64,000 nucleotides of DNA from Candidatus Uhrbacteria bacterium (GTDB lineage Bacteria; Patescibacteriota; Patescibacteriia; SG8-24): contig JAFGIV010000005.1 in NCBI GenBank assembly GCA_016929435.1, forward strand, positions 23,596 through 87,595, given 5' to 3'. This document shows positions 2,672 to 26,941 of the stretch, piece after piece; the stretch's first letter is position 1, and each line of letters starts with the position of its first letter. The notes below the pieces were generated by a model, which did no database searches, was not told the origin of the DNA, and saw only the letters and a list, made by a program, of their open reading frames with translations. The translations under genes were made by a program, and so were the position numbers.

Positions 2672-2835
2672 GAAAAACAAAAGGACAGGCACTATTCACT
2701 GCGGTCGGCATTGCCGTTTCGCCGGAAGACACAAAGACCATCGCCTGAAGGTTCGGGCACCGTGGTCTCAAGCCTTCCTACGACGGGCCACCGGCCGCCT
2801 ATCGTCCCCGATTGCCGCAAGGCCGGGGAAAAACT

Positions 2836-5097
2836 ATGGAAACCAAGAGATTCGAGGCTGACTGGGGCGGCCGCAAGCTGGTCGTCGAGACCGGACTTCT
2901 GGCTCCCCGCGCCAATGCCTCCGTCACCGTCCGCTATGGCGACAGCGTTGTCCTGGCGACCGCGGTCATGTCCAAGCAGGCCAGGGAGAACATCGATTTT
3001 TTTCCCCTGACCGTAGAGTACGAAGAGAGGCTTTACGCCTCGGGAAAGATCAAGAGCTCCCGTTTCATCAAGCGGGAGGGCCGGCCGTCCGACGAGGCGG
3101 TCATGACCGGAAGGATGATCGATCGGGCCATCCGCCCGCTTTTTCCGGCCGATGTCCGGCATGAGGTACAGGTCGTCCTGACCGTACTGTCCGCCGACAT
3201 GGAAAACGACACCGACATCGTCGGCATGATCGGCGCCTCCTGCGTACTGGCCATGTCCGACATCCCCTGGAAAGGGCCGATCGCCGGTGTCCGAATAGGC
3301 CGGGTCAACGGCCAACTCGTCGTCAACCCGACCCTTAGGCAGGTGGACGATGAAAGCGACATTGACATGATCGTCGCCGGAACCACGGAAAGGACCGTCA
3401 TGCTGGAGGCCAACGGCAAGCAGGTTCCGGAGGCGGACATGAAGGCCGCCGTATTTTTCGGCATGGAAAGCCTGAAGGCCCCGATTGACCTCATCAGCCG
3501 CATTGTCGCCGAAATCGGAAAGGCCAAGATCGACCCGTCCAGGCTGACCGGATCGGATCCGGACGAGACCGAGAAGCAGAGGAGGGAAATGGAGGCTAAC
3601 CGGGCCAAGGCCGCCGAGTTCCTCAAGTCCCGCCTGCCGGCCGTACTGTTCGACAACCCCAAGTTCACCAAATCCGAACGGCAGGAAGCCCTGGATCGGC
3701 TGAAACATGAGGCCGACGAATACCTGAAATCCGAACAGTTCGGAAAGGACAGGCGGACCAGGGTACTGGACGGTTTCTATAAGATGATCGGGGCTGCGGC
3801 CACCGAAGCCATCCTGGACGGAGACAGGCGGGTGGACGGCCGATCACTGACCGATGTCCGGCCCCTTTTCGGCCAGGTCGGCCTGCTCCCGCGGACCCAC
3901 GGTTCCGGACTGTTCCAGCGCGGCGAAACCCAGGTCCTTTCCGTCACCACCCTTGGCGGCCCCGGCGACGCCCAGATACTGGACGGCATGGACCAACCGA
4001 ACCTCCGGAAACGCTACATGCACCACTACAACTTTCCGCCGTATTCCTGCGGGGAGACCGGCCGGATCGGCGGCACCGGACGGAGGGAAATCGGGCATGG
4101 GGGCCTGGCTGAAAGGGCCCTGATCCCGGTCCTTCCCCCCAAGGAGGAGTTCCCCTACGTGATCCGGGTCGTTTCCGAGGTCCTTTCCTCCAACGGATCC
4201 AGCTCCCAGGCCTCAATATGCGGATCGACCCTGTCGCTTATGGATGCCGGCGTTCCCATCAGGGAGCCGGTGGCCGGCATTGCCATGGGCCTGGCCTCAA
4301 ACTCCGACATGAGCCGGTGGAAGGTGCTGACTGACATCCAGGACATAGAGGACGGCGACGGCGGGATGGACTTCAAGATCGGCGGCACCAGAAACGGCGT
4401 CTGCACCATCCAGCTGGACACCAAAACCATCGGCCTGACCAGGGAAATAATAGAGAAGACCCTGATACAGGGACGGGAGGCCCTGGACCGAATCCTGGCG
4501 GAGATGTCCAAGACCATCCCTGCCCCGCGTCCGGAACTGGCCCCGCACGCCCCGCGAATCGTCACCGTGAAGATTGCCGTTGACCAGATCAGGGACGTCA
4601 TCGGTCCGGGCGGAAAGATGATCAACGAAATCGTCAGCACCACCGGAGTCAAGATGGACGTGGAGGACGACGGGACGATAACCATCACATCCGCCAACCG
4701 CGAGGGCCTGGAGGCGGCCGTCCGGAGGATCAAGGAGATTACCAGGAAGGTTGAGGTGGGGGAAATGTTCCGCGGCAAGGTGGTCCGGATAATGGATTTC
4801 GGGGCTTTCGTGGAACTGACCCCGGGACAGGACGGGATGGTTCACATCTCTGACCTGGCCCCTTGGCATGTCGGGAAGGTTACTGACCTGGTCAATGTCG
4901 GGGACGTCATTCCGGTTAAGGTCATCAAGATAGACGAGTTGGGACGAATCAACCTTTCCATGAAGGAAGCCAAGAAGGAGTTGGGGGAGGAGCAGGTCCC
5001 GCCGCCGGGATACAACCCGCGACCGCCGATGGGCGGGGGACGGCCTTTCGGCAGCGGTCCCCGTCCAACCGGAGGGCAAGGCGGGTTCCGTCACTAG
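2836..5097 (+). CDS. pnp: Polynucleotide phosphorylase (PNPase)
   Basis: Two RNase PH domains, KH (GPGGKMINEI) and S1 (GKVVRIMDFGAFVEL) domains, and a Gly/Pro-rich C-terminal tail. 754 aa from the ATG at 2836. Confidence 0.95.
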   Translation: METKRFEADWGGRKLVVETGLLAPRANASVTVRYGDSVVLATAVMSKQARENIDFFPLTVEYEERLYASGKIKSSRFIKREGRPSDEAVMTGRMIDRAIRPLFPADVRHEVQVVLTVLSADMENDTDIVGMIGASCVLAMSDIPWKGPIAGVRIGRVNGQLVVNPTLRQVDDESDIDMIVAGTTERTVMLEANGKQVPEADMKAAVFFGMESLKAPIDLISRIVAEIGKAKIDPSRLTGSDPDETEKQRREMEANRAKAAEFLKSRLPAVLFDNPKFTKSERQEALDRLKHEADEYLKSEQFGKDRRTRVLDGFYKMIGAAATEAILDGDRRVDGRSLTDVRPLFGQVGLLPRTHGSGLFQRGETQVLSVTTLGGPGDAQILDGMDQPNLRKRYMHHYNFPPYSCGETGRIGGTGRREIGHGGLAERALIPVLPPKEEFPYVIRVVSEVLSSNGSSSQASICGSTLSLMDAGVPIREPVAGIAMGLASNSDMSRWKVLTDIQDIEDGDGGMDFKIGGTRNGVCTIQLDTKTIGLTREIIEKTLIQGREALDRILAEMSKTIPAPRPELAPHAPRIVTVKIAVDQIRDVIGPGGKMINEIVSTTGVKMDVEDDGTITITSANREGLEAAVRRIKEITRKVEVGEMFRGKVVRIMDFGAFVELTPGQDGMVHISDLAPWHVGKVTDLVNVGDVIPVKVIKIDELGRINLSMKEAKKELGEEQVPPPGYNPRPPMGGGRPFGSGPRPTGGQGGFRH

Positions 5098-5204: not shown

Positions 5205-6614
5205 ATGAAAACAGCGCTGAAAAACGGTCCAAAAAACACCTTGACGGAAAGGGTGACGGTACTGAAAAAACGGCTGGCCGCAACCGCAGCCGTCTTTTTG
5301 GCGATCCTTTCGGCCCTATCCGTCTTTATGGTCACCAATGCCGTGATTCTCCCGAAAGACAGCCTTTCCCGGTTCGTGCCCCATGACTCCATCGGTTACC
5401 TCCATGCCGACCTGACCGCCCCGGTTCGTCCCCGATCCCAGGAGACGATCGACGTCCCGTTCGGGATGGGGCCGGACGAGGCTGCCCGTTTTGTGGCCCT
5501 TTCCAACGGCCAACTAGAGTCCGGATGGATTCTGGCCTGGCACAGGCACGGGCCGTCCGTCGCTGAAAGGGAACGGTTGGCGGACGAGGGGGCTGTCCAA
5601 CTGCTCCCCAACGGAACGGCCTGGATAATCGCCCCGCAGGACCTGGTAGACCGGTGCCGGGAATCCCTGTCCCGGGGATCAACACTGGCAAATGACCCGA
5701 AAATGTCCAAAGGCCTTAAGCTTGCCCGTGACCTCTACCCTGTCCAATTCATGCTAAATCCCAACCGCCTCCCAGAAACCGGAAGGGCAGACCCCGTCAT
5801 GGACGATTTCCGGCAAATGGGTCCGATCGTCGGATCCTCCTCTGACCAGGAATTTTCCAGGGGGATTGTCCTTGCGTTTCCCGATTCCGGGCCGCCAGAA
5901 AAAGGAATCCTGTCCCAAAAACCGGACATTTTCTGGGGGGAAGGCGCGGTCTTGGCCTATGCGGGGGAAAACACTGACACCAACTGGATGGCCGTGGTGT
6001 TCGGGCAGATAAACGACTGGCGGATATCCCTTGGCCTGGATCCGGCCGGGATCCCGAACCCGAAAACGATCCATGACGGTCGGGTATCCATGGTCTTTTT
6101 CCCTACGGAAAAAGACCGTCCCGAATTCACCGTTCGCCTGGAGGAAACGGATCTGGAAGAAATTTACGGAAAATTGAGGATTTTCCTGGATAGGGTCGTT
6201 CCCGGCCGGCAAGTTACCAACCTGCCTGACGGGGATCGGGTTATTGAGCTGGTGACCGTCGCCGGCACCGAAGGTTTGGGGACAGGTGAAAGCATACAAT
6301 CGGGCATTACCGTCAACATAACCGCCAAACCGGAATTTTACCTTCACTTGCGGCAGGAGGGCAGGGATGTTGCCATGTATTCCAGTCAGCGCATGATCGA
6401 TTTGCCAAAAAACAGGGTGGATCTTACCGACTGCGGACAGCATAAAGGTAACCGGCTGATAACCCAAAATTCGTATTTCAGTACCCTACTGAATCTATTG
6501 GGTGTCAACAACGGAACAGGGGAAGGTTTTCGTTTATTCATAGAGAAACAATACAATCTGTGGATAACATGCAGGTTATCCACAATCGTGGTGGATAACT
6601 TACAATCAAACTGA
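5205..6614 (+). CDS. Hypothetical protein with an N-terminal transmembrane anchor
   Basis: 469-aa ORF with coding-like composition and one N-terminal TM helix. No recognisable domain. Confidence 0.55.
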   Translation: MKTALKNGPKNTLTERVTVLKKRLAATAAVFLAILSALSVFMVTNAVILPKDSLSRFVPHDSIGYLHADLTAPVRPRSQETIDVPFGMGPDEAARFVALSNGQLESGWILAWHRHGPSVAERERLADEGAVQLLPNGTAWIIAPQDLVDRCRESLSRGSTLANDPKMSKGLKLARDLYPVQFMLNPNRLPETGRADPVMDDFRQMGPIVGSSSDQEFSRGIVLAFPDSGPPEKGILSQKPDIFWGEGAVLAYAGENTDTNWMAVVFGQINDWRISLGLDPAGIPNPKTIHDGRVSMVFFPTEKDRPEFTVRLEETDLEEIYGKLRIFLDRVVPGRQVTNLPDGDRVIELVTVAGTEGLGTGESIQSGITVNITAKPEFYLHLRQEGRDVAMYSSQRMIDLPKNRVDLTDCGQHKGNRLITQNSYFSTLLNLLGVNNGTGEGFRLFIEKQYNLWITCRLSTIVVDNLQSN

Positions 6615-6681
6615 ACAGAAAAAAGGTTCATTGTTTTTTAAAAAAATGTTTTTTACCTAAAACCAGCTAAAATTTACCATA

Positions 6682-6710
6682 TTGACAGTATGCGCCACTG
6701 TTGATATACT
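6682..6710 (+). promoter_or_regulatory. Consensus sigma70 promoter (TTGACA, 17-bp spacer, TATACT)
   Basis: TTGACA at 6682-6687, 17-bp spacer, TATACT at 6705-6710. Predicted transcription start site near 6717. Confidence 0.6.
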
Positions 6711-6716
6711 AAACGT

Positions 6717-7072
6717 GTTGATAGATCATGTTCCTTACACAAAACAAGAAACAAGGGGATCTCTCCCGGAGCACGGTCTCGGAGCGAGTTCCCCCTTCTC
6801 TACTGATTCCGCACACCAACCTTAGAAACCAAAACAAAATTTCTAAAAATCTTGTGCTTGGTATCCTCCCGCTTGGGTGGCCACTACCAAGAATCGGTAA
6901 AGAAGTGCACTTGGGTTAGGGAATCATGTTCAGAGCAGGCGCTTTGCCTGCACCCCCACAGGGGGTATAGACAATGCGCCTGCATGAGCTACTTTCCCAC
7001 AAACCCCACGGCGTAAGATGCCTTTGAGACTACCATTTGGCTACACTTACGCCGTTTTTTTTATCCAAAAAA
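6717..7072 (+). ncRNA. Candidate ~345-nt structured non-coding RNA of unidentified class
   Basis: Strong promoter upstream and an intrinsic terminator at the 3' end (GGCGTAAG...CTTACGCC + TTTTTTTT at ~7024-7072). Multiple internal hairpins (CTTGGTA...TACCAAG; CAGGCGC...GCGCCTG; CCCCCACAGGGGG). Lower GC than neighbouring genes; the only ORF is 63 aa and not protein-like. Confidence 0.45.
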
Positions 7073-7088
7073 TACCTTTCCGCACCTA

Positions 7089-7117
7089 TTGACTGGCGTT
7101 GATTAAACCTATATATT
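7089..7117 (+). promoter_or_regulatory. Sigma70-like promoter (TTGACT, 17-bp spacer, TATATT) for the dksA-like gene
   Basis: Hexamer match with correct spacing. Confidence 0.45.
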
Positions 7118-7181
7118 GTTTACTGTTACCGGCCTGCCTGAAATCGGATCATGGCCGTATTATATAGCGGAAAACACGACT

Positions 7182-7553
7182 ATGAACAAGGACCTAATAA
7201 AGGAAATGGAAAGCCGGCTGAACAGCGAAAGGACCCGCCTTAAGGAAGAGTTGGAATCGTTTGCCAGCCAAAACCCGAAAAACTCCCAAGACTATAACGC
7301 CAACTTCCCCAACCTTGGGGATAAGGAGGACGAGAACGCCGAAGAGGTCGATACCTTCAGCACCAACCTGGCCCTGGAAAGGACCCTGGAATCAAACCTG
7401 AGGGATATTGACGATGCCCTTGACCGAATCGGTAAGGGCATCTACGGCATCTGCAAATACTGCGGAAAGGAGATAGACGAGAAACGCCTGCAGGCCAGAC
7501 CGGCCTCCAGCTCGTGTATAGAATGTAAGAAATCGTTCACTAGGGAAATCTAA
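7182..7553 (+). CDS. DksA/TraR-family C4-type zinc-finger protein
   Basis: N-terminal coiled coil, then CKYCGKEI...CIECK, a CxxC-x17-CxxC zinc finger. A TTG at 7116 is an alternative start. Confidence 0.8.
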   Translation: MNKDLIKEMESRLNSERTRLKEELESFASQNPKNSQDYNANFPNLGDKEDENAEEVDTFSTNLALERTLESNLRDIDDALDRIGKGIYGICKYCGKEIDEKRLQARPASSSCIECKKSFTREI

Positions 7554-7617: not shown

Positions 7618-8121
7618 ATGCCAAACCTGAGCGAGTCCCCGAAAAAACAAGGACGTCCGTGGGCGCTTATCATGTCTGCGGCGGTTCTTTTGTCAGCGGA
7701 CCGCTGGTTCAAGGGGTTGGCAATGGCCACCGGAGCGGAGGGGCTTTGGGAAAATGCCTTCGGCCTGCCGGTTGACTTCCGGCTTTTCCTGAATCCCGGC
7801 ATTGTCTTCAGCCTGCCGCTGCCTGATCTCGTCTTCTGGCCGACAGCGACTTTGGCCGGCGGAGCCCTAATCTGTGCCTTGGCCAAAACCTGGAGACCGC
7901 AGCCGGCCGTGGCTACGGCCCTAATCTTCGTGGTCTTGGGCGGACTGTCCAATGTCGTTGACCGCATGCTGGTCGGTTCGGTAATCGATTACCTGATTTT
8001 CTTCGACTTGTCGGCCGTGAACATCGCCGACGGGATGATCCTGGGCGGGGCGATCGGGGCGTATTGGATAACGCGGAAAGACGGAAAGAACGGCTCTTTC
8101 GCAGCGGGAGGCAGGGGATAA
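7618..8121 (+). CDS. lspA: Lipoprotein signal peptidase (signal peptidase II)
   Basis: Four TM segments; conserved LGGLSNVVDRMLVGSVIDYL and NIADGMILGG motifs. Confidence 0.85.
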   Translation: MPNLSESPKKQGRPWALIMSAAVLLSADRWFKGLAMATGAEGLWENAFGLPVDFRLFLNPGIVFSLPLPDLVFWPTATLAGGALICALAKTWRPQPAVATALIFVVLGGLSNVVDRMLVGSVIDYLIFFDLSAVNIADGMILGGAIGAYWITRKDGKNGSFAAGGRG

Positions 8122-8206
8122 GTGTGGCGGGATAGACATGGAAGGCAGAAAACAAAAGAGGGGACGGATCAATCAGACCCGCCCCCTTTTTACAATCCAA
8201 TCCCTG

Positions 8207-8782
8207 CTAAAGATCCTGCAAGGTCTGCAAGAACTCCTCCTTTTTCCATTCCTCCCATTTCAATTTCACCCGAAAGAGAAAATATCTGTCGAAACCCCTG
8301 TATTTTTCAATATCCTCGACGAATTTTACTTCATCTGGACAAACTTGATCATCGAAAAAAGGCACTATGGGACGGATTACTTTTAGAACCACCATTCCAT
8401 TCCCCAAAAACTCCACCAGCTCGACTAACGATCCAAACCCCAGGGTACACTCCTCTATTTCCTCATTTCCCGAAAGGGATGAAGGGGATTTTGTTTTGTA
8501 CTGTATCACCCCATTCATACATATTCGATCCCCTTTTTGAGGGAGCTCACTTTGACCCTTATGCCCTTGACACAATTTTATATCTATCCCTGTTTCGACT
8601 TCTTTCGACTGATCCTTCGCCTGATTTTCCGTTTTTGACTGACCCTCAACCGCCTTCTCCTGCGCCGTATCCTGAACCTGACATGAATCCAGCCGTTCAG
8701 ACATGACGCTTATCCTGTATTGAAGGCTCACCAGCCACGAAGCGAAAAAAATACCTGTTACCGTCAGAATGATGCTTTTCAT
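8207..8782 (-). CDS. Hypothetical secreted/membrane-anchored protein in a low-GC islet
   Basis: 191 aa with an N-terminal hydrophobic segment and a good RBS (AGGAAGAGGA). The local drop in GC (8.13-8.9 kb) matches this ORF's composition. Confidence 0.55.
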   Translation of the reverse strand: MKSIILTVTGIFFASWLVSLQYRISVMSERLDSCQVQDTAQEKAVEGQSKTENQAKDQSKEVETGIDIKLCQGHKGQSELPQKGDRICMNGVIQYKTKSPSSLSGNEEIEECTLGFGSLVELVEFLGNGMVVLKVIRPIVPFFDDQVCPDEVKFVEDIEKYRGFDRYFLFRVKLKWEEWKKEEFLQTLQDL

Positions 8783-8979
8783 TGCGATATCCTCTTCCTT
8801 TTTCTATGGTCGTCACCTTTTCCGTGACGACATTTTTAAAATGTTCTTTCTCCTGCTCACCAACCTAATGATAGGGATAGCATAAAAACGCAATCCTGTC
8901 AAGCCTTAAACCCCAACGTTTTGACACCGAAAACCGTCTCGTGTAAGAATATCGCGCCTTAAAAAATAACCGCGAAAAA

Positions 8980-17421: not shown

Positions 17422-17685
17422 CTAAACCGGGTCGTTTCCGCCCCTGTTCCACGGATTACACCGCAACAGGCGACGAAAACCGAGGTAACATCCCCGCAGG
17501 ATCCCGTGCCTGACTATGGCCTGATATGCGTATTCCGAACAGGTAGGCCTAAAGCGACAGCAACCGAAAGGGAAAAGAAACCGGAAAATTCCGCTATCTG
17601 GGGATAAGACCCGCTGGTATACCCTAATTGTCCACAGGACAGGTTTTTTGGGGATATCCATTAAGTTTTCCAGTTTCTTTTTCAT
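17422..17685 (-). CDS. yidD: Membrane protein insertion efficiency factor YidD
   Basis: The CRFRPTCSEYAYQAI motif; overlaps rnpA by 4 nt. Confidence 0.9.
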   Translation of the reverse strand: MKKKLENLMDIPKKPVLWTIRVYQRVLSPDSGIFRFLFPFGCCRFRPTCSEYAYQAIVRHGILRGCYLGFRRLLRCNPWNRGGNDPV

Positions 17686-18023
17686 ACCAACAGGTTGGCC
17701 TTTTTCAGCAGACCATAAACCAAAACGGATAATTCATCAAAATTTAGCCCTAAAACCTTCTTATCAGCGACAAATACGCAATCAAAACCCTGCCTTATTT
17801 CCCCAACCCTGGCCCTGACCATTTCCCTCATCTGTCTCTGGAGGCGATTGCGGACCACGGCCCTCTTATCCACCTTAGTCCCCACCGTAAACCCAAAACG
17901 GCTGTCACCCAAACCGTTCTGGACAACCACGATCCTAAGCCCGGGGACAAAAAAACGCCTTCCCCTGCGGAAAATTCGACGAAAGTCACGTTCAGCGGTC
18001 AGGCGGTTCTTTCTGTTCAACAT
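17682..18023 (-). CDS. rnpA: Ribonuclease P protein component
   Basis: 113 aa, basic, with the RNR-like motif FGFTVGTKVDKRAVVRNRLQRQMRE. Confidence 0.9.
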   Translation of the reverse strand: MLNRKNRLTAERDFRRIFRRGRRFFVPGLRIVVVQNGLGDSRFGFTVGTKVDKRAVVRNRLQRQMREMVRARVGEIRQGFDCVFVADKKVLGLNFDELSVLVYGLLKKANLLV

Positions 18024-18103
18024 ACCTGTATTTTAACCTAATTTTAGATACAAGAAAAACCGCGTTTCAGTGCGGTTTTCCGACTTCAGGATGATGGATG
18101 GGG

Positions 18104-18253
18104 TTATTCTTCAGAAACGGTCAGTTTCTTGCGTCCCTTCGCCCGCCGCCTTTTCAGAATATTACGCCCGGTTGGGGAACTCATCCGGTTTCGAAAACCA
18201 TGTGTCTTCGCCCTTTTTCTCTTTTTCGGCTGGTATGTTCTCTTGGTGGACAT
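18104..18253 (-). CDS. rpmH: 50S ribosomal protein L34
   Basis: Not in the ORF track (<60 aa). Manual translation gives [49 protein letters not shown], upstream of rnpA as expected. Confidence 0.88.
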
Positions 18254-18501
18254 AATTACGCATAATTAAACCGTGCGGTTGGATTGTGCCACAAACCAAA
18301 ACGAAACGCAACCCCCTTGACGGTTATCGGTGTTTTGGTGTGGTGTAGTCTGTGGGTACCGGGATCGGTTGGGTTTATTCACAAACCTTACACAGGTTAT
18401 GAACAAATTCACCCTTTCCAAATATCCACAGGTGTTTTAAACTACCTGAAGCCTCCATTCGGGGCTGGATATCCGGTTTTATTCCTATAGACTATTGAGG
18501 T
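18254..18501. promoter_or_regulatory. dnaA upstream region / candidate oriC segment with DnaA-box-like 9-mers
   Basis: TTATTCACA and ATATCCACA (one mismatch each from TTATCCACA), plus AT-rich stretches, between rpmH and dnaA. Confidence 0.45.
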
Positions 18502-24303: not shown

Positions 24304-25242
24304 TTAGGATGCGTTATCGGAAGCCATAATGGCCGCACCGATTACGTTGGCGTCCGTACCCAGCAATGACCGGGTTATCTTGGTTTTCAGCAGGGGGCGG
24401 TAGGGGACGGCTTTGCGAAATTCTGACTTGGCTTCAGCCAGCAGCCCGTGAACCGAATTCAAACCCCCGCCGACGACAATTATCTCCGGGTTGATGACCT
24501 GGGCGATTGCCGCCAGGCCCATACCCAACCAATACCCCGTCTCCAGGATCGATTCCCTGGCGAAAGGATCCCCCTTCCGGGATTTTTCCGAAATTTCCTT
24601 GGGGGTGTTTTCCTGACCGGTCTTTTCCAGGTAGCGGCGGACAATGGCCCTCCCCGAAACCAGTGATTCCAAATGGCCGTTCATTCCGCACGGGCAGGCC
24701 GGCCCGTTTTTTCCGCTGACCGTCATGTGCCCGATTTCCCCGGCCCCGTTGTCGTGGCCGCGGAAAACCGCACCGTTCAGCACGAGACCGCTTCCGACCC
24801 CTGTCCCTATCGTCAGGCCAACCATGTCCCCCAACCCCTTTCCGGCCCCGTGGCAGTGTTCGCCCAAGGCAAAACAGCGGGCATCGTTATCAACGGTTAC
24901 CGGTCGACCGTACCTTTTCCTTACCATTCCGGCGATGTCCGCATTGTCCCATGACTTGGGCAGGTTGGGCCCCCTAATCAGCTTCCCCTTACGGAAATCG
25001 ACCATTCCGGCGATTCCGACCCCAATGGCCGAAGCTTGCCTGTCCCAAACCGAATCAATGGCCTCAAACATCCTGGAAACGGACATTTTTCCAGTTTTGG
25101 GGTCAACAGTCGGGATGGATATCGATTTTAGGACGGTTCCGCGTGAATTTACCAGTCCGGATTTGATTTTGGTTCCCCCGAAATCAACCCCAATAAACAG
25201 TTTTTTGCCCATATTGCGGCCAAAATTAGATTTCTCCTCCAA
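24304..25242 (-). CDS. ROK-family sugar kinase (glucokinase-like); the start is uncertain between the TTG at 25242 and the ATG at 25212
   Basis: FIGVDFGGTKIKSGLV, zinc-binding CxCGxxGHLE (CPCGMNGHLE) and the ExGH motif. Confidence 0.88.
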   Translation of the reverse strand: MEEKSNFGRNMGKKLFIGVDFGGTKIKSGLVNSRGTVLKSISIPTVDPKTGKMSVSRMFEAIDSVWDRQASAIGVGIAGMVDFRKGKLIRGPNLPKSWDNADIAGMVRKRYGRPVTVDNDARCFALGEHCHGAGKGLGDMVGLTIGTGVGSGLVLNGAVFRGHDNGAGEIGHMTVSGKNGPACPCGMNGHLESLVSGRAIVRRYLEKTGQENTPKEISEKSRKGDPFARESILETGYWLGMGLAAIAQVINPEIIVVGGGLNSVHGLLAEAKSEFRKAVPYRPLLKTKITRSLLGTDANVIGAAIMASDNAS

Positions 25243-25279: not shown

Positions 25280-25366
25280 TTATCCACTATTATCAATAAG
25301 CTTGAATTTGGGGCCTGTTTTGTGGTTTGGGGATAACATGTGGGGCTTATCCATATTTTATCCACA
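25280..25366. promoter_or_regulatory. Cluster of four DnaA-box-like 9-mers
   Basis: TTATCCACT (25280-88), TTATCCCCA on the minus strand (~25326-36), TTATCCATA (25347-55), and a perfect TTATCCACA (25358-66), in an AT-rich stretch. Confidence 0.4.
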
Positions 25367-25471: not shown

Positions 25472-26941
25472 ATGACACCTCAAGTTACCAAAGCCGGTTC
25501 GGTCAGGTTTTTCTTGAAACGAAACTGGCAGGTCATCTATGCCGTCATCCTGATCGTCCTGATTCCCGTAACGGTGGTGACGAACACCTTTTTCATAGTC
25601 AGCCGTTTTCGGAAGACGGTCGATGTTGAGCTCCAGCGGACCGCCCTGATCATCGGAAGGATGGTAAACATCACCGTCCAGGAATCGTTCGGGGACACGG
25701 CGGCCCTCCAGGAGAGGCTAATGACGGTGTCTGAGGCCGTTCCGGAGGTCAGGACAATGGACATACTTTCCCGGGAAGGGGATGACTTTAGGGTGGTCGC
25801 CAGTACGGACAGATCGGCGATCGGAAGGCTGGCGCACGGGCAGCAGAACGTGCTTTCCTGGTACGATACCCGACCGATCGCCTACCTGACCCGGAGCGGG
25901 CGATCGGCCGGCATGGACGACAGGCTTACCGCCCAGGAAACGAGGGGCAGCGAAAGGTTTTGGGGCGTGGTCATGCCCCTGACCGATGCGGACGGCGAGC
26001 GCCAATACCTGCTGTCGGCCAAGATGTCTTTGGGGCTGATGGATAGCCTGGTCCGGTCCAACCTTCTCTGGTCCTATATCTGGCTGGCCATCACCGTCCT
26101 GATGATAATACTGGTTTTGGCCTCCAATACCCGACTGTTCGAATACGCCATCCTGTTCCGGAAACTGAAGGAAGTGGACAAGATGAAGGACGACTTCATT
26201 TCCATGGCTTCCCACGAGCTGAGGGCCCCGATCACCGCCATTCGCGGATACCTTTCCCTTTTTCTGGAGGGCGCCTTCGGGAAGATGGAGGAGAAGCCGA
26301 AGGAGGTCATGAACACCACCCTCCACATCGCCAACCACCTGTCCGGATTGGTGGAGGATCTCCTGGACGTTTCCCGCATCGAGCAGGGTAGGATGGGGAT
26401 GGAATACGAGGACGTTCAGGTGGAGGGCCTGATTACGGAAATAGTCGAGCAGCTTCGTTTCGAGGCCGAAAGGAAAGGGCTGTCTTTCGGCTGTGTCCGG
26501 CCGGAAACCCCGCTTCCGCCCATCCGCATCGACCGTTCCCGGATGAAACAGGTCCTCATCAACATATGTTCCAACGCCATAAAGTACACCCCCAAGGGCA
26601 GCGTGACGGTCACCTCGGTCCTGGACGGAAACGGCAGGGTGGAGATCAGGGTGACCGATACTGGTGTGGGCATGTCTTCGGAAGCCAGGGAGAGGCTGTT
26701 CCAGAAGTTCTATCGGGTTAAGACCGAGGAGACCAGGGATATTCCGGGAACTGGGCTGGGGCTATGGATAACCAAGCAGATCGTGGAGATCATGGGAGGG
26801 AAGGTGTTCGTGGATTCCATTGAGGGGATAGGTACCCAGGCCAGCGTGGTCTTTCCTGTTTCCGGTTCGGTCCGGGATTTAGGGCAGGGGGATGTGGGGG
26901 AAACGGATGTCCCGAAAGGGCCGGATGACGACCTGATCTGA
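25472..26941 (+). CDS. Sensor histidine kinase
   Basis: Two TM segments flanking an extracytoplasmic sensor region. HisKA H-box SHELRAPITAIRGY; HATPase N, G1 and G2 boxes (NAIKYT, DTGVGM, GTGLGL). Confidence 0.9.
   Translation: MTPQVTKAGSVRFFLKRNWQVIYAVILIVLIPVTVVTNTFFIVSRFRKTVDVELQRTALIIGRMVNITVQESFGDTAALQERLMTVSEAVPEVRTMDILSREGDDFRVVASTDRSAIGRLAHGQQNVLSWYDTRPIAYLTRSGRSAGMDDRLTAQETRGSERFWGVVMPLTDADGERQYLLSAKMSLGLMDSLVRSNLLWSYIWLAITVLMIILVLASNTRLFEYAILFRKLKEVDKMKDDFISMASHELRAPITAIRGYLSLFLEGAFGKMEEKPKEVMNTTLHIANHLSGLVEDLLDVSRIEQGRMGMEYEDVQVEGLITEIVEQLRFEAERKGLSFGCVRPETPLPPIRIDRSRMKQVLINICSNAIKYTPKGSVTVTSVLDGNGRVEIRVTDTGVGMSSEARERLFQKFYRVKTEETRDIPGTGLGLWITKQIVEIMGGKVFVDSIEGIGTQASVVFPVSGSVRDLGQGDVGETDVPKGPDDDLI

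Follow-up and report, generated by a model that had tools for sequence, protein, structure and literature searches.

The question raised by this locus is what lies between the gene of an orphan membrane-anchored protein and that of a DksA-like protein in a Candidatus Uhrbacteria bacterium (contig JAFGIV010000005.1), of which we analyzed a stretch of 64,000 nucleotides, hereafter the window. A preliminary description had read positions 6682 to 7072 as a stand-alone gene for a structured noncoding RNA (ncRNA) of unknown class, and this reading was upheld by the promoter, the terminator, the covariation among homologs and the lack of a match in Rfam. That the locus holds a real and conserved gene for a structured ncRNA belonging to a new family we regard as close to certain. 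Its function is a matter of more guarded judgement: taken as a whole, the best explanation is a single-copy ncRNA gene whose product would act as a scaffold, and to this explanation we give a probability of roughly 45%.

The gene begins with a promoter that agrees with the sigma-70 consensus at 11 of 12 positions and carries the TG of an extended -10 element, bearing out the TTGACA-17-TATACT promoter described before (Table 1). In the promoter scan, it ranked best of the seven promoter-like sites found between positions 6000 and 8000, a span in which shuffled sequences yielded 1.6 such sites. As a prediction from sequence, a consensus promoter with an extended -10 implies that the RNA is highly expressed. 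We placed the 5′ end of the RNA 7 nt past the -10 element (~6717) and the 3′ end within the tract of eight Ts that follows the last hairpin, H4. The preliminary description had called the 3′ element a canonical intrinsic terminator. The terminator itself is borne out by its 10-bp stem, its T tract and its covarying pairs, but the word canonical does not hold: it is a structured terminator, not a textbook one, formed by a long hairpin with a conserved A-rich bulge. A simple terminator scan allowing loops of 3 to 8 nt did not flag it because the stem encloses ~28 nt.

The region 6717-7072 (356 nt) folded with a minimum free energy (MFE) of -134.3 kcal/mol, corresponding to a z score of -7.3 in comparison with dinucleotide-shuffled sequences, none of 100 of which folded as well, in agreement with the stable hairpins described earlier. 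The reverse strand of the region folded equally well (z = -8.0), and therefore folding energy cannot assign the strand. The GC content was 0.375-0.495 over positions 6600-7099 in comparison with ~0.55-0.67 in the coding flanks, in line with the earlier remark that it falls below its surroundings.

Homologs were collected by three routes: from contigs encoding relatives of the DksA-like protein, from motif scans of GTDB genomes and from motif scans of JGI metagenomes. The DksA-like protein, which matches one annotated in Candidatus Uhrbacteria bacterium with 100% identity, has ~350 relatives, mostly unnamed or from metagenome-assembled genomes (MAGs) of Patescibacteria/Parcubacteria, and the 120 listed were all at least 66% identical to it. 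The contigs of 12 such relatives showed pnp, a protein of 424-491 aa without Pfam hits, a gap of ~520-720 bp, dksA and lspA, and their intergenic gap aligned with the RNA region of the window. For the scans, we assembled a motif of the invariant positions with 25 specified bases and required exact matches, which were found in 10 GTDB species genomes and on 10 JGI metagenome contigs. The same scan of IMG/VR gave no match, and a phage origin of the RNA was rejected on that result. The three routes gave 26 distinct sequences in total, all from Patescibacteria MAGs or metagenomes; the GTDB titles "uncultured Gammaproteobacteria" and "Acutalibacteraceae" were taken as loose MAG labels because the loci concerned share the synteny. 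Searches with nhmmer and with a covariance model of the P2 domain found exactly one copy of the RNA per locus, and likewise one in the whole window. The homologs measure 316-373 nt over the corresponding span, and the mean column identity of the RNA alignments is 60-63%. The transcription signals are conserved along with the RNA: TTGAC, a 17-nt spacing and a TAnnnT -10 element were present in all 26 loci, TGn ahead of the -10 element in 25 of them, and a run of Ts after the H4 stem in the homologous loci read. Among the sequences sampled, the RNA appears confined to a clade of Uhrbacteria-like Patescibacteria, part of the candidate phyla radiation (CPR).

Covariation among homologs, which the preliminary description had named as a way to check the RNA, proved strong. 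In an alignment of 21 sequences (A4), the RIBOSUM-scored consensus comprised 84 pairs in eight helices. Standard base pairs made up 91.3% of the cells at these pairs, in comparison with 40-48% when the partners were slid by one to three columns. Two-sided changes were seen at 52 of the 84 pairs (203 cells), and the observed values were not attained on any measure of covariation in 500 shuffles. RNAalifold, given 21 sequences, proposed 62 pairs, and compensatory changes were seen at 38 of these. The strand left open by the folding energies is settled by many conserved wobble pairs, among them a U·G of P2 present in all 24 sequences and a G·U of H4 present in 19 of 21: the RNA is read from the forward strand because a conserved G·U would be an A·C on the other. 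As judged from the alignments, covariation supports five structural units, made up by H1, the three-way-junction domain of P2, P2a and P2b, H3, and H4, which also serves as the terminator.

The units differ in the form that their support takes. H1 has 14 pairs, eight with two-sided changes, and 85% of its cells are paired; in H3, a near-continuous hairpin, 25 of 30 pairs show two-sided changes and 89% of the cells are paired; and in the outer stem of H4 the corresponding figures are 10 of 12 and 99%. H3 is shortened in the homologs L012, L038 and L039, and most homologs have in H4 an inner hairpin and a conserved bulge, AAAAAC, on the 3′ strand. In the 21 close homologs, P2 hardly varies, nor does the base of P2b. 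When divergent homologs were added by alignment to a model (R1), 8 of the 13 pairs of P2 showed two-sided changes and 96.8% of the cells were paired, in an alignment that is model-fitted and thus leans towards the model, its slid controls reaching 38-57%. The independent MFE fold of L039 agrees with the model of P2, and P2 and P2b change on both strands in L038, L039, L041 and L042. Examples of such changes in the divergent homologs are CUUCU/AGAAG to CCUCU/AGAGG, UACU/GGUA to GACU/GGUC and, within P2b of L039, GGUA/UACC to GGCA/UGCC. P2a was misaligned by MAFFT, and its layout was judged from single-sequence folds: all 21 homologs folded singly gave a stem, an internal loop, a second stem and an A-rich loop, while the sequences of the stems differed. 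The loop (consensus AAAAAYMAAA) is followed by an A-rich internal loop on the 3′ side, and its adenines are invariant in the alignments. In some homologs, the tip of P2b holds insertions capped by UUCG. The invariant unpaired adenines of three elements and the tolerance of helix tips for UUCG-capped insertions are hints of a tertiary fold. The sole non-nested pairing candidate, GGGGG with UUCUU, was rejected as G·U-rich and weak.

The unpaired 5′ tail contains a CU-rich motif, GUUCCUUACA, that is conserved in the alignment columns and for which an all-against-all scan of columns gave no covarying partner of at least 4 bp; it is probably single-stranded. The motif raises the possibility that the RNA is a trans-acting base-pairing regulator, in which GUUCCUUACA and similar UUCYUU words would pair with purine-rich mRNA sites, such as ribosome-binding regions, and the body of the RNA would only stabilize the molecule. 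A conserved 5′ motif without an intramolecular partner is what such a regulator should show, and an own promoter and terminator are found in classical small RNAs. On the other hand, the ~100 covarying pairs and the invariant junction nucleotides exceed the needs of a small RNA that carries a seed; the neighbouring genes hold no conserved complementary target, the 5′ regions of dksA being without a match; and the only long complementarity that we found, to lspA, uses a variable part of the RNA. We consider this regulator an unlikely explanation. The complementarity itself spans 22 nt at 82% between the tip of P2b (6869-6890) and positions 7717-7738 inside lspA, and it is probably due to chance, since that part of the RNA varies in the homologs.

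No protein-like open reading frame (ORF) had been seen at the locus by the preliminary description, and comparison with the homologs agrees. A 63-aa ORF at 6728-6919 was disrupted by in-frame stops or frame-shifting lengths in all 20 homologs compared, and the longest ORFs of the individual loci agree neither in their position nor in their frame. Neither the 63-aa ORF nor a 54-aa ORF of the window had a Pfam hit. The idea of a small-protein gene, or of an RNA that also encodes the 63-aa product, has in its favour the presence of the ORF with an ATG start; it is effectively refuted by the lack of any shared position or frame and by substitutions that follow base pairing and not codons. We rejected it as the ORFs have no Pfam hit and are not conserved.

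The RNA matched no described family. A search with the 4,227 models of Rfam 15, proposed beforehand as a check, gave no family matching the RNA at the gathering score in the 64-kb window, and none in related loci totalling 146 kb. At E ≤ 10, a search of positions 6400-7300 (901 nt) and of seven homolog loci likewise matched the RNA to no family, RF00010, RF00011 and the 6S-type families included. Over all these searches, the only hits were to tRNAs and, as scattered chance hits, to hairpin-type models (AfaR, mir-9195 and snoRNAs), none of which recurred across the homologs. Neither the window nor any of 15 homolog loci contained a transfer-messenger RNA (tmRNA) according to ARAGORN, and we found no description of this RNA in the searchable literature. 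The RNA is therefore new at the level of the family, nothing in Rfam 15 or in that literature corresponding to it, and it lacks the defining features of each family with which we compared it.

A highly diverged housekeeping RNA could escape such searches, and the RNase P RNA is the main candidate, with tmRNA and the RNA of the signal recognition particle (SRP) as lesser ones. The length of the RNA (that of a type A RNase P RNA is ~350 nt) fits rnpB or ssrA, its promoter is of the housekeeping type, and the window encodes rnpA, as had been pointed out, whereas neither the window nor the 146 kb from related loci yielded an RNase P RNA at Rfam thresholds. The RNase P RNAs of CPR bacteria are divergent and are known to escape the default thresholds of Rfam: 10 of 35 circular CPR genomes required lowered thresholds for RF00010 (Lui et al. 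2021, PMC8172020). Those divergent RNAs nevertheless kept the RNase P core, and the parts of that core are missing here. Pairing of the 5′ and 3′ ends (P1) and the long-range P4 pseudoknot are absent, all supported helices being local and nested, and the alignments of the RNA contain no GGAAAGUCC or ACAGAA-type P4 strands and no CR-I or CR-IV sequences. The preliminary description was accordingly right to find no hallmarks of RNase P RNA or tmRNA. The 3′ end is a terminator hairpin with a U tract and not an acceptor stem with CCA, and the tRNA-like acceptor and T-arm ends and the tag-peptide reading frame of tmRNA are lacking. SRP RNA gave no Rfam hit, and in contrast to its domain IV (helix 8), with a conserved tetraloop and internal loops, the hairpins H1, H3 and P2b end in tips of variable length and sequence. 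It does not follow from the presence of rnpA that this is the RNase P RNA, which may lie outside the sequence examined, and to a diverged housekeeping RNA we give next to no weight.

The order of genes around the RNA is common to the homologous loci: pnp, the orphan membrane protein, the RNA, the dksA-like gene and lspA (Table 1). The RNA lies directly upstream of the DksA/TraR zinc-finger gene in 24 of the 26 loci. In the remaining two, L012 and L038, a His_Phos_1 (phosphoglycerate-mutase-like) gene sits between the RNA and dksA (2069-2791 in L012 and 2562-3290 in L038), and the RNA remains beside the upstream gene, with a gap of ~550-600 bp before the inserted gene. This insertion, in one sub-lineage, is the sole break in an otherwise uniform synteny.

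Table 1. Coordinates of the RNA gene, its structural elements and the genes and sites around it, given as positions of the window
Feature	Position	Strand	Details
pnp (PNPase, polynucleotide phosphorylase)	2812-5097		upstream of the RNA
Orphan membrane-anchored protein, 469 aa	5205-6614		upstream of the RNA; no Pfam domain
DnaA-box array	6559-6598	.	TGTGGATAA 6559-6567, TTATCCACA 6576-6584, GGTGGATAA 6590-6598
GAAC-N9-GTTC element, 17 bp	6613-6629	.	between DnaA boxes and RNA promoter
RNA-gene promoter, sigma-70-type	6682-6710	+	-35 TTGACA 6682-6687, 17-nt spacer, TG 6702-6703, -10 TATACT 6705-6710
Predicted primary transcript	6717-7063	+	~345 nt; ends placed from promoter and terminator
5′ tail	to ~6754	+	unpaired; holds GUUCCUUACA 6730-6739
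H1, 5′ hairpin	6755-6794	+	GGGGAUCUCUCCCGGA with UCGGAGCGAGUUCCCC
P2 domain, three-way junction	6795-6905	+	P2 closes P2a and P2b
P2 closing helix	6795-6809/6891-6905	+	CUUCUCUACUGAUUC with GAAUCGGUAAAGAAG
P2a	6810-6859	+	outer stem GCACA 6811-6815/UGUGC 6853-6857; inner UUAGAAA 6822-6828/UUUCUAA 6840-6846; A-rich loop CCAAAACAAAA 6829-6839
P2b hairpin	6860-6888	+	GGUA-U-CCUCC, variable tip, GGUGG-CCAC-UACC
Linker	6906-6922	+	
H3, long irregular hairpin	6923-6994	+	~30 bp
Linker	6995-7007	+	
H4	7008-7055	+	U tract 7056-7063
H4 terminator hairpin with T8	7008-7063	+	outer stem ACGGCGTAAG 7008-7017/CTTACGCCGT 7046-7055; T8 7056-7063
Promoter of the dksA-like gene	7089-7117		TTGACT-17-TATATT; promoter scan
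dksA-like (DksA/TraR zinc-finger) gene	7182-7553		downstream of the RNA, same orientation
lspA	7618-8121		downstream of the dksA-like gene
yidD	17422-17685	-	
rnpA	17682-18023	-	
rpmH	18104-18253	-	
dnaA	18502-19914	+	11.5 kb from the RNA locus

Between the terminator and the start codon of dksA, most loci carry a separate conserved promoter, TTGCC(T/A)-17-TAnAnT, whose -35 element is unusual in that form, and the dksA promoter claimed to follow the terminator in the window was confirmed. In the 5′ untranslated region of dksA, a Shine-Dalgarno sequence is usually missing, and a small hairpin is often present. These promoters bear on the idea of a cis-regulatory leader, akin to a riboswitch or an attenuator, that would govern dksA and lspA through H4. 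The RNA is directly upstream of dksA in the same orientation, and its terminator hairpin has conserved internal features beyond the needs of a plain terminator, as a leader would predict. In conflict with it are the second hairpin-plus-T terminator that several loci add just past H4, the additional gene that separates the RNA from dksA in L012 and L038, and the lack of any alternative antiterminator pairing in the covariation. With a conserved promoter assigned to the dksA-like gene itself, the sequences indicate that the RNA is an independent transcription unit and not a leader of dksA, which makes leader function very improbable.

The adjacency to a protein of the type that binds RNA polymerase suggests by analogy another role, that of a regulator directed at the polymerase, like 6S RNA or Ms1, working together with the DksA-like protein. 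Here the arrangement in 24 of the 26 loci, a size near that of Ms1 and a strong promoter, typical of abundant RNAs, all point the same way. Like 6S RNA and Ms1, it is expected to be an abundant, stable RNA from a gene of its own. Ms1 itself was reportedly found by synteny (PMC9130861). The preliminary description had also considered a 6S-like RNA, and on this point it found no support: both known RNAs have paired ends and a long rod with a central bubble, whereas here the ends are unpaired, local domains follow one another after a single-stranded 5′ tail, H3 is a near-continuous hairpin, and Rfam gave no hit. The adjacency to dksA is moreover uninformative, since the whole block is syntenic, and it is broken in two loci. 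We find a polymerase-directed function distinctly improbable.

Compared with its neighbours, the orphan protein upstream of the RNA diverges strongly. Across the loci, identity to the window proteins was 59-72% for PNPase, 67-80% for DksA and, by tblastn, 23-34% for the orphan protein, whose locus-derived homologs were 15-27% identical in alignments. In comparison with PNPase, it evolves very fast. Common to the homologs are a hydrophobic anchor at the N terminus and two Cys residues that do not vary, features that suggest an extracytoplasmic protein; a database search returned only the protein itself at the sensitivity used. No repeat of the template/variable type was found that would link the RNA to this fast-evolving gene, and a relation of the kind seen in diversity-generating retroelements was rejected on that ground. 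Further downstream, the stretch 8122-8979 between lspA and a comM-like gene has a GC content of 0.40-0.47, a strongly negative GC skew and a 191-aa ORF (8207-8782, reverse strand) that has a hydrophobic segment at its N terminus and lacks a Pfam hit. The slot after lspA varies among the relatives and holds small ORFs and a Band_7 gene in L003. In many loci, genes for a LexA-like protein (Peptidase_S24) and a Y-family polymerase follow a few kilobases downstream.

Two elements precede the promoter of the RNA. The first is an array of DnaA boxes, three within 40 bp, of which two are perfect and one has a single mismatch. The array occupies the 3′ end of the orphan gene, ~90-125 nt ahead of the -35 element and outside the transcript. 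Counting matches to TTATCCACA with at most one mismatch, the window contains 20 boxes in comparison with 7.7 expected. At the equivalent position, boxes were found in all 25 loci whose upstream sequence reached 149 nt or more, 24 of them having two or more; we calculated a chance expectation of ~0.06 boxes per 300 nt. The homologous arrays usually have two to five boxes, often 20-22 nt apart and in one orientation. The second element, GAAC-N9-GTTC, recurs with fixed spacing as GAAC-N9-(G/A/T)TTC in 18 of the 26 loci, and by its sequence it looks like a transcription-factor site.

These boxes could mean that the RNA is coupled to replication or the cell cycle, either as a transcript regulated by DnaA or as part of a unit that modulates an origin or a site like datA or DARS (DnaA-reactivating sequence). 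Such a coupling would account for the conserved position of the boxes in 25 of 25 loci and their regular spacing, and it would suit the AT-rich tract that separates boxes and promoter in the window as well as the distance of 11.5 kb to dnaA. Several observations fit it poorly. Across the loci, 90-170 nt separate the boxes from the -35 element, with the terminator of the upstream gene between them and the RNA promoter in many loci; the first box (TGTGGATA-A/T) at the same time encodes Cys-Gly(-Tyr or stop), the conserved C terminus of the orphan protein; and the elaborate fold of the RNA would be left unexplained. As for an origin, the GC skew does change locally at ~6.6 kb, with a sign that is wrong for an origin, and a better fit to the skew minimum is given by a cluster of boxes at 25.3 kb, on which grounds we set aside a replication origin at the RNA locus as the less probable. 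A replication-coupled RNA is in our view quite unlikely. The window also shows the classical arrangement of rpmH-rnpA-yidD (17422-18253, reverse strand) divergent from dnaA, with DnaA-like boxes at 18375-18430. The 25.3-kb cluster comprises four boxes in 87 bp (25280-25366) between divergent genes for a ROK-family protein (24304-25242, reverse strand) and a histidine kinase (25472-26941, forward strand), and its position near the cumulative GC-skew minimum of the window makes it a candidate oriC.

Returning to the RNA as a scaffold, we infer a defined three-dimensional fold recognized by a protein or ligand because of the ~100 conserved pairs, the invariant wobble, the A-rich elements and the strong promoter, features that simple antisense regulators do not show. 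The RNA would act in trans as a compactly folded scaffold. The near-invariant P2 of 13 bp with its invariant U·G, together with the adjoining junction, would form the recognition site for the protein or ligand, and the three A-rich unpaired elements, namely the P2a loop, the 3′ internal loop of P2a and the AAAAAC bulge of H4, might dock through contacts of the A-minor type. The unpaired CU-rich 5′ motif may add a contact with RNA or protein, and the DnaA-box array and the GAAC-N9-GTTC element may tie expression to the replication or stress status of the cell. By analogy, we tentatively propose a trans-acting scaffold or subunit of a ribonucleoprotein (RNP), with the P2 junction for recognition and the A-rich elements as tertiary docks, and hold this part of the explanation at somewhat below even odds.

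Some points weigh against the scaffold, or against how far the evidence for it reaches. Both ends of the transcript and its abundance are deduced from sequence signals only, and the mechanism borrows from other large structured RNAs. The scan of all column pairs revealed no convincing pseudoknot, long-range helix or tertiary contact by covariation, and the near invariance of P2 could also reflect an alternative pairing or base pairing in trans. The gene order is uniform in all homologs, the inserted gene of one sub-lineage apart, and the neighbourhood therefore carries little functional information. Finally, the exact 25-base scans sample the range of the RNA only in part, and the true range is probably wider than that sampled, because the scans needed exact matches which divergent members of the L039 type would miss. 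A bolder form of the explanation would see a new large tertiary-folded housekeeping RNA of CPR bacteria (the subunit of an undescribed RNP, a ribozyme or a self-assembling RNA) whose gene is tied to the DnaA boxes so that the level of the RNA, or the availability of DnaA, is coupled to replication of the chromosome in cells that are minimal and symbiotic; we consider this unlikely.

Bacterial RNAs as large and as structured as this one are rare, and each of those already described (RNase P RNA, tmRNA, OLE, ROOL/GOLLD and others) proved on study to be a machine or else an assembly of an unusual kind. CPR bacteria, or Patescibacteria, have tiny genomes with few regulators, and to our knowledge almost nothing has been described of their RNA biology. 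The RNA is likely important to its host cells because the consensus promoter, the ~100 covarying pairs and the fixed genomic position persist across the clade. The alignment, the structure and the coordinates make it directly testable, and the conserved DnaA-box array provides a second lead, on the wiring of replication and gene expression in CPR bacteria.

Among known systems, the RNA has the features of a generic intrinsically terminated ncRNA gene, namely a conserved promoter, a terminator, no conserved ORF and a covarying structure. As a structured RNA near pnp, for which a scaffold role is conceivable, it recalls the Y RNA of the Ro-PNPase complex (RYPER), from which it differs in being far larger, in having no tRNA-like module, no Ro/TROVE gene nearby and no Rfam hit. 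The GOLLD and ROOL RNAs often occur in phages, whereas this RNA had no viral-contig match. With GOLLD and ROOL, and with OLE, the raiA motif and HEARO, a group whose functions are unknown or only emerging, it shares a length of hundreds of nucleotides, covarying helices, multi-stem junctions, invariant unpaired nucleotides, a lineage-restricted range and an independent gene. It differs from them in its lack of a match in Rfam 15, in its patescibacterial hosts and in being smaller than OLE and GOLLD. These RNAs are folded machines or scaffolds rather than simple antisense RNAs, and it is to this loose class of large structured bacterial RNAs that the RNA described here shows a resemblance, one of kind only.

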